Position numbers: made by a program | In this document: positions 39,001 to 45,000 of the stretch, piece by piece | How the letters are laid out: each line of letters begins with the position of its first letter | Numbering within the stretch: position 1 is the first letter of the stretch | From: Abditibacterium sp. | Lineage (GTDB): Bacteria; Armatimonadota; Abditibacteriia; Abditibacteriales; Abditibacteriaceae | Direction: 5' to 3' | NCBI GenBank assembly: GCA_965246885.1 | Contig: OZ251992.1 | Span: 2,432,001-2,496,000 of the forward strand | Length of the DNA stretch: 64,000 bases

Positions 39001-42000
39001 AGATGGAAACGCGCTCGGCCTGCCACGTCTGCTTTGGGCCAACGGTGATGGCGCGCTTGGGCACGAGCGGCAGGTTGCCCCCACCGGAGGTGCGCGCGTT
39101 TTGGATGAGTGTCAGAGGGTGCAACTCCACGACGCGCGTGCCCAGTTTCAAGTACTCTTCCGGCGAGGGCGGCGCGTCGGCGAAAGCGCCCTCGCGCCGG
39201 AGCGGGTCGTTGAAGGCCCAATGCTTGACTTCGCCCTGCCCGCCTTGCATGACGGCGCACCGCACGCCTTCGTAGGAGCGTTCGTAGTCGGTGGGGTCGG
39301 CGGCAGGAAAGTGCAAGTTCGCCTCTCGAATGGCGAGCGCGGGCGCGATGTGGTTGAAGCACAGTTCGCGGTCGGCGCGGGCAAACGAAAGCGGGTGGGA
39401 TTCGGGTGCTTCGCGTCCATCGAGAAACCACTCGTCCATGCCCCAAAAGTGGGCTTCGCTCCGGCCCAAGTCGAGGCCCAAGTCGTTGACCAGTTGCGCC
39501 ACAAGCGGCAACTGTTCCGTTGGCCCGACGGGGCCGCAGATGCCGCACGGGTTGTCGGGCGTGGACTGCCGCCACGCCCCGACATATTCGAGCGCTTCGG
39601 CGAGGTAGAACTGCTCCAGTGAGTCGTAAAGCACCACCTCGAATCCGGGCCGCGCCAGTTGCTGCAAGTCATGGGCAGACAAGCGCGCGGCGTCGGCGAG
39701 CAATTCAGTGTCGAGGGTGGTGTAATCCCACCAATCGGGCGCAACAGTAGAAAGAGGGCGTGACATGGAAAGAGGTTGAAAGGTTAAGCGGTAGAAAATG
39801 CAAGGACACGCGCCTCGCTCTTTACATCGGCAGGTGGGGGCGCACGGGCGCGGTGTGAGCGTTGGAAAGCGGTTGTTGCTCGCGCACGACAGCGATTAAA
39901 TGTTCGTAGTGGGCGCGCGCCGCGTCGTCTTTGAGGGTGTGACAGAAGTCGGCGAGCGAGTCGCTGTCTCCCGGAACCACGCTGGCACCCTGCTCACCCG
40001 CGCCTTTGTCGGCGCTGGGTGGCAGTTCGCCCGTCGCAAGGAACCGCCGGTAGGTCTCGACTTTCTGGCCCGCTTTGTCGAAGGCTTCGTGGCGCTCTTT
40101 AGTGGCTCTGGCGCGGTAGTCTTCCTCGACTCCGGCGCGACGCATCATCGCTTCGAGCCACACGCGGCCATATTCGGTGTGGCTGGTTTCGTCTATGATG
40201 TCGAACTGCATCATCTCGGCGCTTTGGGCGTCGCCGCCATCGCGGAAGTCCTCGAAACAGTAGCCCTTGGTCTTGAAATAGCCAGTCTCGGCGATTTGCG
40301 TCACGTTGTAGAACGCCTCATACACATCGCGCGGCGTCATCGGCGGGAGTGTCCCTTCGTTCAAGGCTGCGCCGTAGCTGGTGTAGCCGACATCCCGAAT
40401 CGAAAGGCCGAAGCTTTCCAAGCGCGTCTTGCCGGAATTGCCGTGCCGCGACTCGTCCCACATATGGCGCGCTTCGTCGCGCAGAAATTCCCAAGGCATG
40501 AAGTCGGCGTAGAAGAGCCAGCGCAGTTGCATCTCGGCCACGCCCATCTCCCATAGGTAGCCGATCATGAAATACAAGCGCCGCGCTTCTACTGAGTCCG
40601 ACCAGTCGAGTTCCAAGAATGGCATGATGTTGGGCGCTTGGTCGCCACCGGGAACAAGACCGGGCGCGATGTTCATTTGGAAATCGGTGTGCTTGCCCGC
40701 CGGTCGCGCAAACGGCTCAGCAGCCGGAATCGGCGTCTCGAACGAGCCGACGCTTTCGAGGCCGCACAGCACTTTGTCCGCGAAGTCGGCGCTTAGTGCG
40801 AGACCTTCGCGCATCTTGAAGCCGCTATACCACGCGGTCTGCTCCTGCCGGTCGGCCAATATCTCGCGCAGCATTTTGTGCGTGGGCGCGTCGTGGACGG
40901 GGTTCGACGAATCCATGTAAGCACGATACGCGGCGTCGAGCGTGGGATACACCAACTCATGCAGCGCCGCCATCGCCTGATTGAAGTTCGGTGCCGCGAA
41001 GAGGGTGTTCAGCGCCGTCTCGAAGTCGCCATGAACCGGCGCGTCGGGGTTGCCGGGGAACATTTCTAAGCGGTTGCGCAGTTTGTCAGTATTCTGGCTT
41101 TGCAAGTAGGCGCCGTAGCACATTTGCAGTTTGTCGTCCCACTCGCGCGCGTCGCGGCCCCAACCGCACAAAACGCGCATCGCGCTGTATTCCACATATT
41201 GCCACTGCGCGAGCAGGTCGGCGACATCGGTGCCCATGCGACGCCGTTTGGAGGCCGCGAATTCGGCTGGTCGTTCAAGTGTTTGCATTGTGAGTTTCCT
41301 TTGATTACAAGATATAGCCCGATATACACGAGAGGGTTAGGCGGGCCAGAACTGAATTTGGCTTCCCAGAAAGAAGCCGACGATCATCCACGCAACCATC
41401 GCGCACACGTTGCCAAAGATGAGGCCGATCATGAAGGGGCGCACCTTCTGCACGGAGTCGCTCCCACCATATTTGAGCAGGAGGCTTTTGACAGCCCAGC
41501 CCAGAAAGAACGAGAACCACAGCCGCCGCATCGGTTGCGCGGTCGAGAAGACGTAGCCGAGCGGATGGAGCGAGAACCACAAAAAGCGGCTACGCAAGAT
41601 GGCGAGGGCGACAACGACGAAAGCGCCGAGCGCAATCCAAGGCCACGTCGAAAAGTCGAGCGAATCGCCGCGTGTCATCAGCGCCGAGGTCGCGTTGAAG
41701 CTCATCTGCGGCCCCTGATACGTGAACCACGTGTAACCGCTCAAGCCGCCATGCTCATATACGGTCACAAGCGCCGTGAGGATGGTCACGGCGAAGGCAG
41801 CACCGGTCGCCGCCAATACCGCGAAGCACAAGCGGCGCGTGTCGCGCGGCGAAAACTGCGCGTCGTGGGCGAGCTTGAAGGTGTGCAGGTAAGCAGGCAA
41901 AGTCGTGGTGCGCAGGTCGCCAAAGAGCATCGGCGACAAGAACGACAGCTTGGTCAGGTTCGCCGCCCCCAAGAACGACGCCGATAGCCCGCTTTGCGTC

Positions 42001-45000
42001 ACCATGTAAAGCGGCGAGAACGACAGTTGCGGAAACAATACGCCGCCCTCCACCACAAGGCGCGCCAGCACGATATTGAGCAACACGAACGAGCCGAACA
42101 GCCCAACCGTCAGCCAAGGCGACAACCCCGCAAAACTGCACCACGCACACAACCCTACGAAGCACGCCGCCCAGCCCACCACCACAAAGCGCGCCGAGAA
42201 CGGTTCGTTGAGGGTTGTAGCCGCCGAAGCGCGGCGCGGGTTGAGCGCGGCGAGGAAGGTGTTCTTGAGTTGCTCGCGCGCACCCCACAAGAGGAGCGCG
42301 CCCATCCCCAACCACGCGCCCAGCGACTGAAAGGCAAGGAAGTGCGGGCGTTGCCCGTAGGGTTCTTTGGGCAGAGCGTCGGGCACAAAGCCCATCTGCG
42401 CGGCGGCCACCAGTTGCACTTGCACGAGCAGAAAGCTCGTCCAAAACGAGAACGACATCTCGCGCGTGAGCAGATACGCCACGCCGACGGCACCGAAATA
42501 CCACTCAATGTTTAGACTGCCAATGGCGCTGAGCGGCGCTTCGGTAAAGTTCAACACCAACTGGTTGCCCTGAAACCCCGTCAGAACCGGGAACTGGGGA
42601 AAGTAGTTGTTGAGGCCGCGCAGAAGGTGGAACGCCGCCGCAACGCCAAAGCCCAGCCACATCAAGCGGTTTGCCCAGAACTCGCGTGCCGGTGGGCTTT
42701 GCCCCGCGCCAGTCTCGACCATTTGGAGCGGCAACTGCACGAGCGGAAACGCCAGCGCTTCCGACTCGATCCACTGCTTGCGAAAGAGCAGGGCCGTAAA
42801 GAACAGCAACCCGTAGAGCAAGAGGCAAAACCCGCTCCACGCGAGGAGCATCACCATCCACGCATGCCAAGGAATTTGCGATGGGGATACCTGCCCGGTG
42901 AAGAAGCCGTCCACCACCTCGCGCTGGAAGGTGTGCCCGTCCCAACCCGGCGCCCACCACGAGGGAATGTGCCGGTAAAAGGTGTCGGCCCAATGATTCT
43001 CGCGCGTCGAAAAGTAGAACAGCGTCGGCCCCGCGCTTAAGAAGAAGTTCTCCGTTCCCGGCGTCGAAACCAGCGCCGCGAGGAGCGTCATCGCGTACAC
43101 CGTCAGTAGCTCGCCGCGCGACAAGGGCCGCGCCAAACGGGAGTTGAGCGCGCGAAGCGGCACGTTCACGCCCAGAACAAGCGCCATTAGGATGAACACC
43201 GCGCCAAACGGCAGGTGCACCCCGCCCAAAAAGTGCACGTTGGCGAAAGTTTCGATCCACGCGTTGAGCGCCGCTAACCCCACCGACAGCCCCAACCCAA
43301 GCGCCACCGCCCGCCCCGACACGGGCGTGCGCCCCGGTTCTTGGGGCGATGCGGTGGGGGGCGCAGCTTCGGGAGCGAGTATTTCGGGGAGCGGGATAGA
43401 GCGGGGCATAACGTGGGTGAGCGGTTGCTTTGAGTTAGGCGGTCGTCGGGCGCCAAGGCGCAATATGGGCATCACGGGCATCGGCTTTCCGTTCCCATGC
43501 GCTGTAGTCAAGCGGCGCTCCAATTTCCGGCAGATGGGAAACACCGGTGAGGTGCGCTTCGATGGCAGTGATGCGCGCTTCCGGCAAGCATTCCGGCCCC
43601 AGTTCAAGCCGTATCTCCCGTGCTTCGAGGGCCGGAAAGACGTGCCATTTCTGCGCGCCAATCGTGTGGCCTGACGCTATCTCCCGCCCATCTGCGAGCA
43701 CGCGATAGCCCATGACGCGCTGGCCATATTCCAAGTGCTCGCGCAAAACGAGATGGTCGAAGCGCGCCGCTTCACTCAAGCGCAGGGTGGCGCCTTGGGC
43801 ATCCGGGACAAAGTCACCCGCGAGCGGCGAGGCGAAGCGGCGCCTAATTTCGTCGGCGAGGGTGCGTAGCGCGGCTTCGTCGTGCGGGTCAATGCGGCCT
43901 TGGCGGTTCGGCCCGACGTTGAGCAACAAGTTCGCGCCCAACCCGACCGAGAGATAATAGATGCCCAACAGGTGCTCCGGCGTTTTGAGCGTCGGCAAGT
44001 CGTCGTCCTGCCAGAACCAGTGCTGACGGATGGCGACATCACATTCGGGCGGCAGGTAACGTAGCTCCTCCAGTTGCTCGCTTTCGGATGTAAACGCCGA
44101 AATGTCGGTGGCGGCGACGGCATACAAACAGGGGTCAGCCGCGACGCCGTCCTCGTTGCCCGCCCAACGGATGGTGGGAGAAGGCCCCATGTTAAAGACC
44201 ATCGCGCCCGGTTGGTGGGCGCGCACCACATCCATGACGGCGTCCCAATTGTAGTCGCGGCCTTCGCTGCCGCCGCCATCGAACCATAGCTCGAAAAGCT
44301 CGCCGTAGCGGGTGCAAAGCTCGGTCAGTTGCGCGCAGTAGAAGCGGTCGTAAGCCGCTCCATCCGAGTAGACGGCGCAGTTCCGATCCCAAGGCGACAG
44401 ATACAACCCGAAGTGCAAGCCCCTGTCCCGACAAGCCTTGGCTACCTCGCCCACGATGTCTATTTGGCCGGGCGAGTTGCGAACACTGTAGGGTGTGGTG
44501 TCCGTCGGCCATAAGCAAAAACCATCGCCGTGCTTGGCGGTAAGAACGAGATACTTCGCGCCCACACTCAAAGCAATGTCCACCCACTGGTGGGGGTCGA
44601 AGTCGGTGGGCGCGAAGGTTTCGGGCGGCCACTGGCCCGCGCTCCACTCGCGGTTGTGGAAGGTGTTGATTCCAAAGTGGCAGAACAAGCCAAATTGCGC
44701 GCGTTGCCAGCGCAGTTGAGCCTCGGCTGGAATGGGGATAGGGGACATCGCGTCGGGTAAGGGTCTCACTTGACGGCTTCGAGCGTCACATCATCGAACC
44801 ACGCGGTGCCGGTCGTGCCTTTGCGCAGGTAGAGGGCGAGGCGGTTGTTACCCGCGTCGGAACGCACGGTGAAGGTGCTTTCAACCTTCGTCCAGTCGAA
44901 AGTGCCCGCCAAGGGCTTGGCGTATTCGCCGCGTAGCCAATCGCCGCCCTTGGAGAAGCTTTCCATATAAAGCGCCGCGCCCTCGTCGCCGACGCTTCCT

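Follow-up and report, generated by a model that had tools for sequence, protein, structure and literature searches.

Polysaccharide utilisation loci combine a regulator, exported proteins that bind and cleave glycans, one inner-membrane importer and cytoplasmic exo-glycosidases, the same arrangement that we propose here for a locus of Abditibacterium sp. The structure closest to the membrane protein of this locus is HvYS1 of barley (PDB 7wsr/7wst; YS1/YSL clade, OPT family), a dimer held by a C-terminal strand with a disulfide and carrying three Asp proton sites. The central cavity of YS1 is large (PMC9691689). For most prokaryotic OPT members peptide-type substrates are predicted from context. 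According to part of a 2011 paper, the characterised OPT members are all cation:solute uptake symporters (PMC3061005). The same paper predicts from genome context that prokaryotic subcluster 4C takes up xylan oligosaccharides, on the basis of Bacteroides and Acidobacteria members whose neighbours encode an endo-xylanase and a regulator of the AraC type (PMC3061005). Glycans, which an earlier note on this DNA had regarded as a new substrate class for OPT-type transporters, had thus already been proposed from context in 2011.

The window, meaning the whole stretch of 64,000 nucleotides analysed, contains a string of genes on the minus strand and a divergent GH20 gene:

52537..54084, plus strand: GH20 beta-N-acetylhexosaminidase, divergent, without signal peptide (Pfam 6.5e-115; N-terminus)
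51071..52237, minus strand: LacI-family regulator (LacI HTH with Peripla_BP_3/1; Pfam), head of the string
49819..50706, minus strand: pilin-like protein (N_methyl motif with SBP_bac_10/DUF1559; Pfam)
47493..49661, minus strand: exported 722-aa protein with a weak GH42/DUF4434-type N-terminal part and a C-terminal PA14 domain (Pfam; N-terminal hydrophobic signal)
45342..47480, minus strand: exported 712-aa protein, likely glycosidase-like, as a lead only (signal-peptide-like segment; Atlas)
44766..45329, minus strand: exported 187-aa CBM_4_9 carbohydrate-binding protein (Pfam; signal peptide)
43435..44769, minus strand: GH29 alpha-L-fucosidase, presumably cytoplasmic (Pfam 2.8e-45; N-terminus)
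41337..43409, minus strand: DUF6785+DUF6784 protein of 690 aa, proposed oligosaccharide importer (Pfam, AF2, Foldseek, VIA-align)
39822..41288, minus strand: cytoplasmic protein of 488 aa, weakly matching DUF455 (32.2 bits against a cut-off of 34.3; Pfam)
38831..39766, minus strand: 311-aa protein distantly like glucosamine-6-phosphate deaminase, NagB (NCBIfam)
37904..38656, minus strand: PIG-L family de-N-acetylase (Pfam 2.7e-26)
37033..37896, minus strand: xylose-isomerase-like TIM-barrel enzyme (Pfam 9.5e-42)
36038..37036, minus strand: GFO/IDH/MocA oxidoreductase (Pfam), last gene of the string

Pfam searches thus recovered the series of regulator, pilin-like, PA14, CBM_4_9, fucosidase and DUF6785 genes given in the earlier note. 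From the PA14/GH-like gene to the NagB-like gene the gaps were at most 55 nt, including one 4-nt overlap. The 712-aa protein had no Pfam or NCBIfam match, and its nearest Atlas clusters (score 0.96-0.98) carry CBM_4_9 (17-20% of members), GH42 (32-48%) or GH2_C (39%). The NagB-like protein matched TIGR00502 with E 3.1e-6, far below the cut-off of that NCBIfam profile. By a crude hydrophobicity script, three proteins of the string have signal peptides, and GH29, GH20 and five further enzymes have none; GH29 is presumably cytoplasmic because it lacks one even in its maximal ORF. The DUF6785/DUF6784 protein is the sole polytopic membrane protein of the string, in which Pfam revealed no gene for a solute-binding protein, an ATPase, a peptidase or a metal-related protein. 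Adjacency to the pilin-like gene says little, because DUF1559 pilin-like proteins (62 matches, about 58 genes) are scattered through this genome.

The open frame of the transporter gene (41337..43661, minus strand) reaches back to a TTG. The ATG at 43409 gives 690 aa and lies 25 nt past the stop of the upstream GH29 gene; the public gene model has 714 aa and starts 24 codons upstream of this ATG. Pfam assigned residues 33-554 to DUF6785 (2.5e-136) and residues 590-686 to DUF6784 (6.2e-31), with no OPT match at E<=0.01. The YS1-like fold, which the earlier note had obtained on another paralogue, was reproduced on the window's own: the AF2 model (84 sequences) had a pLDDT of 91.6 and a pTM of 0.93, and Foldseek matched it to 7wsr_A (barley YS1) with E 6.2e-8 and TM 0.62/0.70, the second-best match being far weaker (E 0.048, TM 0.12). 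The model strongly supports an OPT/Yellow-Stripe fold and a transporter. In this reading, about 14-16 helices would make up a secondary transporter that is built of a core and a scaffold and has a large cavity at its centre; judging from the characterised OPT members, import is probably cation (H+)-coupled, with an elevator-like movement.

The claim that no sequence search connects these proteins to OPT holds for the window protein and its close relatives, none of which (0/72) matches OPT at E<=0.01, and fails for the family. Among 61 genomes of the phylum, ten gave matches to the OPT HMM, at 14 places in all; 8 of the 11 ORFs scanned from these matches were DUF6785 proteins. Two of the eight match OPT colinearly with E about 1e-5, one of them through residues 177-638 against profile positions 119-612 of 623 (E 1e-5). 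In hhalign, the DUF6785 family aligned with a family named 'peptide transporter' over 590 columns (92.5% probability, E 5e-7), and the latter is also predicted to have the YS1 fold (E 3e-11). The motif E-[RK]-L-x-F-P occurs in both (53/84 and 37/37 sequences); of the OPT motifs, NPG was present in 2/84 DUF6785 sequences and a KIPPR-like one in 0/84. YS1 was not found by sequence with either profile. At family level, a link to OPT is present as judged by these profile matches.

Six paralogous genes were present in this genome, as the earlier note stated (eight matches, two genes being split into two each). The family is diverse (26-46% identity within top matches), multi-copy (as many as 58 first-look candidates in a single genome) and, as had been claimed, common in the phylum: it was found in 127 of 151 sampled Armatimonadota genomes and in 0 of 14 control genomes.

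We consider it rather probable that the window gene encodes a very divergent OPT-superfamily member that serves as the oligosaccharide importer of this operon. The PA14/GH-like, 712-aa GH-like and CBM_4_9 proteins would bind an extracellular glycan made in part of fucose and N-acetylhexosamine, and would cleave it; the resulting oligosaccharides would cross the cytoplasmic membrane through the DUF6785/DUF6784 protein; and GH29, GH20, PIG-L, NagB-like, TIM-barrel isomerase and Gfo/Idh/MocA enzymes would dismantle them in the cytoplasm, with the breakdown under LacI-type control. For this paralogue the role of oligosaccharide importer fits best, because no other polytopic protein is encoded in the tight, co-directional string, where it stands between exported proteins of glycan-binding or glycosidase-like type and GH29, GH20 and amino-sugar enzymes that lack signal peptides, and because its closest orthologues and related loci have the neighbours described below. 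Fold, operon and enriched neighbours favour the importer claim of the earlier note, and its substrate is still drawn from context, which makes a glycan plausible.

That note had also argued from a shortage of other importers. In this genome, which is 92.7% complete, there was indeed no TonB barrel and no PTS EIIC, and MFS_1 gave 13 matches (about 9-10 genes, in line with the nine counted before). The statement that sugar ABC systems are nearly missing needs correction, as ABC importers gave 14 BPD_transp_1 and five SBP_bac_1 matches, and about six ABC systems are present. Other possible sugar importers, ABC and MFS, therefore exist in the genome; within the operon, no protein other than this membrane protein is a candidate for oligosaccharide import.

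The closest orthologues keep carbohydrate contexts. One (51% identity) has same-strand genes for two TIM-barrel proteins, a GFO protein and a Glucosamine_iso+PIG-L fusion, plus a LacI-type regulator; such a fusion of Glucosamine_iso and PIG-L adjoins the transporter at orthologous locus L109. Another orthologue has a heparinase II/III-like gene directly upstream and CBM_4_9, BNR_2, PIG-L and GH78 nearby; a further one (G096) has Malectin, NamZ and GDSL genes nearby, the NamZ (exo-N-acetylmuramidase) carrying a fused domain of beta-lactamase type.

GH, CBM/lectin, sulfatase, NAGPA or BNR genes lay within two genes on either side at 29 of 79 related loci (286 neighbours scanned; E-value cut-offs varied slightly, 1e-8 to 1e-12), against 2 of 20 random regions, a control drawn from this one genome. 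GH, CBM and sulfatase neighbours are thus enriched; the 29 loci amount to roughly ten independent contexts because many are orthologous Poribacteria loci, and 50/79 lacked a GH, CBM or sulfatase gene within two genes. Fourteen Poribacteria loci have a sulfatase directly upstream of the transporter and an enolase-superfamily (MR_MLE) gene downstream, with GHL10 within two genes in 6/14 and a XylIso-TIM gene in two. This sulfatase has no room for a signal peptide, since its domain starts at about residue 5. Across the family, the paralogues probably import differing carbohydrate-derived solutes, including sulfated ones in Poribacteria.

Among the six paralogues of this genome, three have a GH, CBM or sulfatase-type gene within two genes and three do not. 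The GH1/CBM9/pilin-like string of a second paralogue and the FeoA-FeoB genes upstream of a third were confirmed. The GH26 gene placed next to one paralogue was not seen; the upstream 408-aa ORF had no Pfam match (E<=1e-5, crude ORF calls).

An OPT-fold importer for peptides, glycopeptides or muropeptides, whose glycan part the amino-sugar enzymes of the operon would process, is an unlikely alternative. The substrates known for OPT members, as listed in part of PMC3061005, comprise peptides, glutathione and metal chelates. The recycling of amino sugars and muropeptides also uses GH20, PIG-L and NagB-like enzymes, the NamZ fusion is a near neighbour of the G096 orthologue, and a sister paralogue (L013) is followed by genes for an aminotransferase, a peptidase of family M81 and a creatininase. 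The nearest sequence-related family carries the NCBI name 'peptide transporter', as do the nearest non-DUF Atlas clusters (score 0.79, a lead only), but this name is mere annotation. The GH29 fucosidase and the exported CBM_4_9, PA14 and GH-like proteins misfit peptidoglycan or plain peptides, the window string has no peptidase, and peptidases turn up at few of the 79 loci (one each for M28, M60 and the trypsin-like type), whereas GH and sulfatase neighbours are frequent.

Import of small carbohydrate solutes (monosaccharides, amino sugars, sugar acids or sulfated monosaccharides) instead of oligosaccharides is distinctly unlikely. The NagB-like, PIG-L, TIM and GFO enzymes do work at monosaccharide level, and the Poribacteria sulfatase, which has an N-sulphoglucosamine-sulphohydrolase-type C-terminal domain, is paired with an enolase-superfamily dehydratase, a pairing that might act on a sugar acid or on a monosaccharide bearing sulfate. 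However, GH29 and GH20 have no signal peptides in their maximal ORFs, so glycosidic bonds are seemingly cut in the cytoplasm, and oligosaccharides would have to be imported. OPT substrates, at an estimated 300-800 Da, have roughly the size of di- to tetrasaccharides, which also counts against small solutes. They include oligopeptides of three to eight residues, according to part of PMC3061005, and the cavity of YS1 is large (PMC9691689).

We regard as very improbable that the protein is no importer and acts as an exporter or flippase of glycans or lipid-linked sugars, or as a sensor. A minority of the loci do have biosynthetic neighbours: Bac_transf and GT2 (L081), a glycerophosphotransferase (L065), an FkbM methyltransferase adjoining one paralogue of this genome, and PGA_cap with an epimerase near another. 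The window string, in contrast, is catabolic and LacI-regulated, its cytoplasmic glycosidases need an import route, and uptake is the direction of all characterised OPT members covered in part of PMC3061005.

Uptake of metal chelates, as complexes of siderophore or nicotianamine type, by a Yellow-Stripe-like transporter is extremely unlikely: the structural match is an Fe(III)-phytosiderophore transporter, part of PMC3061005 places prokaryotic OPT members in an 'iron-siderophore' subdivision of the family tree, one paralogue follows feoA-feoB and a siderophore-interacting protein is encoded two genes from the transporter at one related locus, but that is 1 of 79 loci, the window string has no metal-related gene, and the FeoAB adjacency, raised as an objection in the earlier note, was not conserved at any of 11 other orthologous or related loci, three of them orthologues at 78-79% identity (tblastn with the genome's own FeoB; 1.5-kb flanks only).

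Under the preferred reading, an oligosaccharide importer, the window protein takes the pathway place held in polysaccharide utilisation loci by MFS/GPH symporters and CUT1 ABC importers, which have an unrelated fold. Members of OPT subcluster 4C resemble it in that their oligosaccharide substrates are likewise deduced from operon context. The OPT family (TC 2.A.67; Pfam PF03169) is like the DUF6785 proteins in size (about 650-700 residues) and helix number (about 16), and differs in its NPG/KIPPR motifs, missing in DUF6785, and in Pfam, which files DUF6785/DUF6784 as two separate DUFs; the DUF6785 family is concentrated in other phyla and strongly multiplied there. The 'peptide transporter' family (Armatimonadota and Planctomycetota, locus L020 type) has end-to-end profile homology, the YS1 fold and the shared motif at about 14% identity in the hhalign alignment, and is highly conserved (52-89% identity across phyla), whereas DUF6785 is diverse. 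HvYS1 has 12% identity to the window protein without a direct sequence match; it is a plant protein for iron, and the window protein is a bacterial one in a genomic context of carbohydrate catabolism.

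The transporter gene lies in a minus-strand open reading frame (41337..43661) that is open from a TTG codon. Translated from the ATG at 43409, which lies 25 nt beyond the upstream gene's stop codon, the protein has 690 aa; the public gene model starts 24 codons earlier and has 714 aa. The Pfam search of the window protein gave matches above the gathering score to both DUF6785 (PF20581; residues 33-554, E 2.5e-136, 455.6 bits vs. a cut-off of 25) and DUF6784 (PF20580; residues 590-686, E 6.2e-31, 107 bits vs. 26.4). There was no further Pfam family at E<=0.01, and no NCBIfam family covered the transporter. 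Searched in six frames, the genome (3.56 Mb, 92.7% complete) yielded the six DUF6785/DUF6784 paralogues counted in the earlier note; the nearest relative of the window protein among them (50-52% identity) lies in a string with GH1 and CBM9 genes.

For modelling, the window protein was aligned with 83 relatives (alignment A1) picked out of a set of 1.84 billion representative proteins. In that set the family had 4275 matches (clusters at 50% identity) at E<=1e-3, of which 793 reached E<=1e-30. The AlphaFold2 model was very confident (pLDDT 91.6, pTM 0.93) and had about 14-16 long helices. Foldseek matched it in the PDB to barley Yellow Stripe 1 (YS1) alone, with 7wsr_A at E 6.2e-8 (TM 0.62/0.70) and the second YS1 entry, 7wst_A, at E 1.6e-7. 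The runner-up beyond YS1 had an E of 0.048 and a TM of 0.12, so the match is specific to the OPT/YS architecture, and the Yellow-Stripe-type fold extends across the whole chain. The YS1 fold, first claimed for another paralogue, thus holds for the window paralogue too, and it is very likely that this protein has the OPT/YS fold and is a transporter. Its conserved acidic residues E100, E217, and E402 are candidates for a role in cation (H+)-coupled solute uptake.

The earlier note stated that no sequence search links the family to OPT. This was true of the window protein and its close relatives, but at the level of the family an indirect link appears. The OPT HMM (PF03169, gathering score 25.8 bits) had no match at E<=0.01 in the window protein (hmmscan) or in any of 72 close relatives (the subset of A1 used for the Pfam scan), and none at E<=1 in six frames across the genome. 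YS1 was never recovered from the PDB sequences by phmmer or hmmsearch when the queries were the window protein, A1, A2 (the alignment of the OPT-like family described below), or the OPT-matching member L018. Passages of a 2011 paper on the OPT family place the NPG and KIPPR motifs in many, not all, OPT proteins (PMC3061005); among the 84 family sequences NPG occurred in two and K[IVL]PPR in none, and the window protein has neither.

Over 61 genomes of the phylum, by contrast, the OPT HMM gave 14 weak matches in 10 genomes (19-34 bits; up to 33.6 bits in six-frame searches), and every one was a DUF6785-type or A2-type protein. DUF6785 proteins made up eight of the 11 scanned ORFs, two of them colinear with OPT along most of their length: residues 177-638 of L018 aligned with profile positions 119-612 of 623 (E 1e-5), and residues 362-678 of L017 with positions 306-621 (E 7e-6). 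By hmmscan, members of the family other than the window protein scored 24.9-25.4 bits, vs. the gathering score of 25.8, and five further genomes reached via the loci had no OPT match above the cut-off.

The ninth scanned ORF, at locus L020 (1456-3405, minus strand), had OPT as its sole match, near the threshold (24.3 bits). Its family (A2), to which NCBI gives the name "peptide transporter", is separate and highly conserved: its proteins, of 650-690 aa, are 52-89% identical across Armatimonadota, Planctomycetota, and Brocadiia. PF03169 was precomputed on two of 120 members among the matches listed, and the L020 protein had no match in plasmids. When A1 was compared with A2, itself near-threshold to OPT, hhalign aligned them end to end over 590 columns (92.5% probability, E 5e-7). 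The A2 model (pLDDT 83.2) matched YS1 alone (E 3e-11, TM 0.63/0.67), and an E-[RK]-L-x-F-P motif located at a helix break is common to the two families (53/84 sequences in A1, 37/37 in A2). The A2 family, uncharacterised itself, bridges DUF6785 and OPT. In our reading, the DUF6785/DUF6784 proteins form a distant branch of the OPT superfamily (TC 2.A.67), outside Pfam OPT as currently defined.

The transporter belongs to the following co-directional string, given in order from the regulator, with a GH20 gene beside it.

Genes of the string around the transporter
Minus strand: LacI-type regulator
49819-50706, minus strand: pilin-like DUF1559 protein
Minus strand: 722-aa PA14 protein with a weak GH-like N-terminal part
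45342-47480, minus strand: 712-aa protein without a Pfam or NCBIfam family
Minus strand: 187-aa CBM_4_9 protein
Minus strand: GH29 alpha-L-fucosidase
41337-43409, minus strand: transporter (DUF6785/DUF6784)
39822-41288, minus strand: 488-aa cytoplasmic DUF455-like protein, directly after the transporter (sub-threshold DUF455, 32.2 bits vs. a 34.3 cut-off)
Minus strand: NagB-like protein
Minus strand: PIG-L deacetylase
Minus strand: xylose-isomerase-like TIM barrel
Minus strand: Gfo/Idh/MocA oxidoreductase
Transcribed divergently from the string: GH20 hexosaminidase

From the PA14/GH-like gene to the NagB-like gene the intergenic gaps are 55 nt or less, with one 4-nt overlap. A consensus scan of 35500-52800 found 1 promoter-like site vs. 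4.2 expected and 25 terminator-like sites vs. 21; these are no commoner than in shuffles, so the operon boundaries are drawn from spacing alone. A simple hydrophobicity script detected signal peptides on the PA14, 712-aa, and CBM proteins; GH29, GH20, and the enzymes encoded downstream, each read as its maximal ORF, had none. Within the string, the transporter alone is a polytopic membrane protein. A sugar-type (LacI) regulator, a pilin-like protein, three exported proteins, GH29, the transporter, and five cytoplasmic enzymes are thus co-directional and tightly spaced, and the logic of the string is that of a glycan utilisation locus, in an operon predicted from spacing and strand. The 712-aa protein has its nearest Atlas clusters (score 0.96-0.98) among hypothetical proteins from Planctomycetota, Kiritimatiellota, and Bacteroidota, a minority of which carry CBM_4_9, GH42, or GH2_C; as a lead, this exported protein could be a glycosidase so far unclassified.

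Pilin-like genes (prepilin N-methylation motif plus DUF1559/SBP_bac_10) often lie beside regulators and glycosidase genes, and another is found at 55975-56721 (plus strand). Adjacency to them was set aside as evidence for a glycan role: DUF1559 had 62 matches, about 58 genes, scattered over the 3.56-Mb genome, so one in the string carries little weight.

This arrangement suggests how the locus might work. The exported proteins would capture and cleave the glycan outside the cell; inside, exo-glycosidases for fucose and N-acetylhexosamine would act together with amino-sugar enzymes; and the transporter would be the one membrane protein between the two sides.

The closest orthologues of the transporter retain carbohydrate neighbours in three other genomes. 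In G019 (51% identity) the same strand encodes two TIM barrels, a Gfo/Idh/MocA protein, and a Glucosamine_iso+PIG-L fusion, with a LacI-type regulator divergent. The orthologue in G059 (51% identity) has a heparinase II/III-like gene directly upstream and CBM_4_9, BNR_2, PIG-L, and GH78 nearby, and that in G096 (56% identity) follows a Malectin-domain protein and is also close to NamZ, a GDSL esterase, and a pilin-like gene. Three of the six paralogues of the genome itself have a carbohydrate-type neighbour. One of the six (L010, contig C1, 2076394-2078667) forms one orthologue group with the members at L030, L031, and L088; here, in this genome and in Abditibacterium-type genomes, the DUF6785 gene is consistently followed by one for a SurA-like PPIase, a conserved pairing without an obvious sugar link.

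A metal-chelate substrate had been weighed in the earlier note on the grounds that one paralogue lies right after feoA-feoB. The adjacency is real but not conserved: FeoB was absent from the 1.5-kb flanks of all 11 other loci, namely three orthologues in the genus (78-79% identity) and eight further related loci, and therefore gives no argument for such a substrate in the family.

Wider contexts were collected by a pattern scan of species genomes, made from a 20-sequence alignment, which confirmed 595 relatives, of which 79 loci were kept (Abditibacteria-type bacteria, Armatimonadota, Poribacteria, Latescibacterota, and others). Pfam was run on two genes each side (286 proteins), and we sorted the Pfam names into classes ourselves. 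One or more neighbours of the glycoside hydrolase, CBM/lectin, sulfatase, NAGPA, or BNR type were present at 29 of the 79 loci. These 29 are not independent, fourteen of them representing one Poribacteria arrangement; the other 50 loci were uninformative or negative. Twenty random 7-kb control regions of the genome, each >30 kb from any paralogue and treated alike, gave two positives (2/76 proteins). Outside the Poribacteria arrangement the positive contexts were GH5/GH43/GH43; GH106 with a sulfatase; GH43 with Ricin and GDSL; GH32; GH4; GH92/BNR/GH109; and NAGPA. Contexts that point in other directions were few: an M28, an M60, and a trypsin-like peptidase, each at a single locus; one locus with a siderophore-interacting protein two genes off; two with glycosyltransferases; and five that share a further Poribacteria arrangement, of ADH, LarA-like, and MetE-like genes.

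At the 14 Poribacteria loci (L035-L045, L047, L049, L050), the DUF6785 gene is immediately preceded by one for a sulfatase with an SGSH_C domain and has an enolase-superfamily (MR_MLE) gene on its downstream side; GHL10 occurs within two genes at six of them and a XylIso-TIM gene at two. The sulfatase domain begins at about residue 5, which leaves no room for a signal peptide, so a sulfated sugar must reach the cytoplasm. The arrangement suggests that these sponge symbionts import a sulfated sugar and remove its sulfate in the cytoplasm.

Two other recurrent arrangements were seen. Adjacent DUF6785 pairs, tandem or divergent, occur in several genomes (L062, L077, L086, L091, L104). PhyH-type (phytanoyl-CoA dioxygenase-like) genes lie within two genes of DUF6785 at eight of the 79 loci (L051, L054, L068, L071, L079, L084, L093, L094), and one is found near the window operon (54994-55911, plus strand).

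The transporter inventory of the genome agreed with the earlier count in lacking a TonB-dependent barrel and a PTS EIIC and in having about 9-10 MFS genes; Sugar_tr gave only weak matches. There were also 14 ABC permease-domain matches and five SBP_bac_1 proteins, where the earlier note had hardly any sugar ABC system, so conventional sugar importers are few but not absent. Sampling of the phylum found DUF6785 in 127 of 151 genomes (111 of the 134 of good quality), against none of 14 control genomes. First-look candidates numbered up to 58 per genome in the phylum, nine being scored in each; such multiplication would be typical of nutrient-uptake families with diversified specificity.

Taken from gene context and the logic of topology, the best-supported reading, which we favour with some reserve, is that the window paralogue imports a carbohydrate, probably an oligosaccharide, in the manner set out for the string. 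Glycans had been put forward in the earlier note as a new OPT substrate class. As an idea this is not new: the same passages of the 2011 paper propose, from genome context, oligosaccharide uptake by a prokaryotic OPT branch, and state that no prokaryotic OPT protein had been biochemically characterised at that time (PMC3061005). As an experimental class it would probably be new. In the literature searched we found no mention of DUF6785 or DUF6784, and the relatives among the 120 listed are named solely "hypothetical protein" or "DUF6785 family protein". The phylum-enriched DUF6785 branch of the OPT superfamily probably has a new substrate class.

If this is true, a large family would gain a fold, a place in a superfamily, and a function open to testing, and the feeding of cytoplasmic glycosidases and sulfatases would be explained in glycan degraders that have no TonB-dependent receptors or PTS. 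For the sponge-symbiont Poribacteria it would indicate how sulfated glycans of host or algal origin are taken up. The experimentally known OPT substrates, peptides and metal chelates, would be widened to carbohydrates, so far suggested from context alone in 2011. More tentatively, the principal route by which oligosaccharides and sulfated sugars enter through the inner membrane in Armatimonadota, Abditibacteria-type lineages, and Poribacteria could be the DUF6785/DUF6784 proteins. These proteins would then be OPT-fold, proton-driven transporters multiplied to tens of paralogues per genome, the first carbohydrate-transporting OPT branch tied to both fold and locus logic, filling the place that SusCD-linked, ABC, or PTS systems have elsewhere among glycan degraders.
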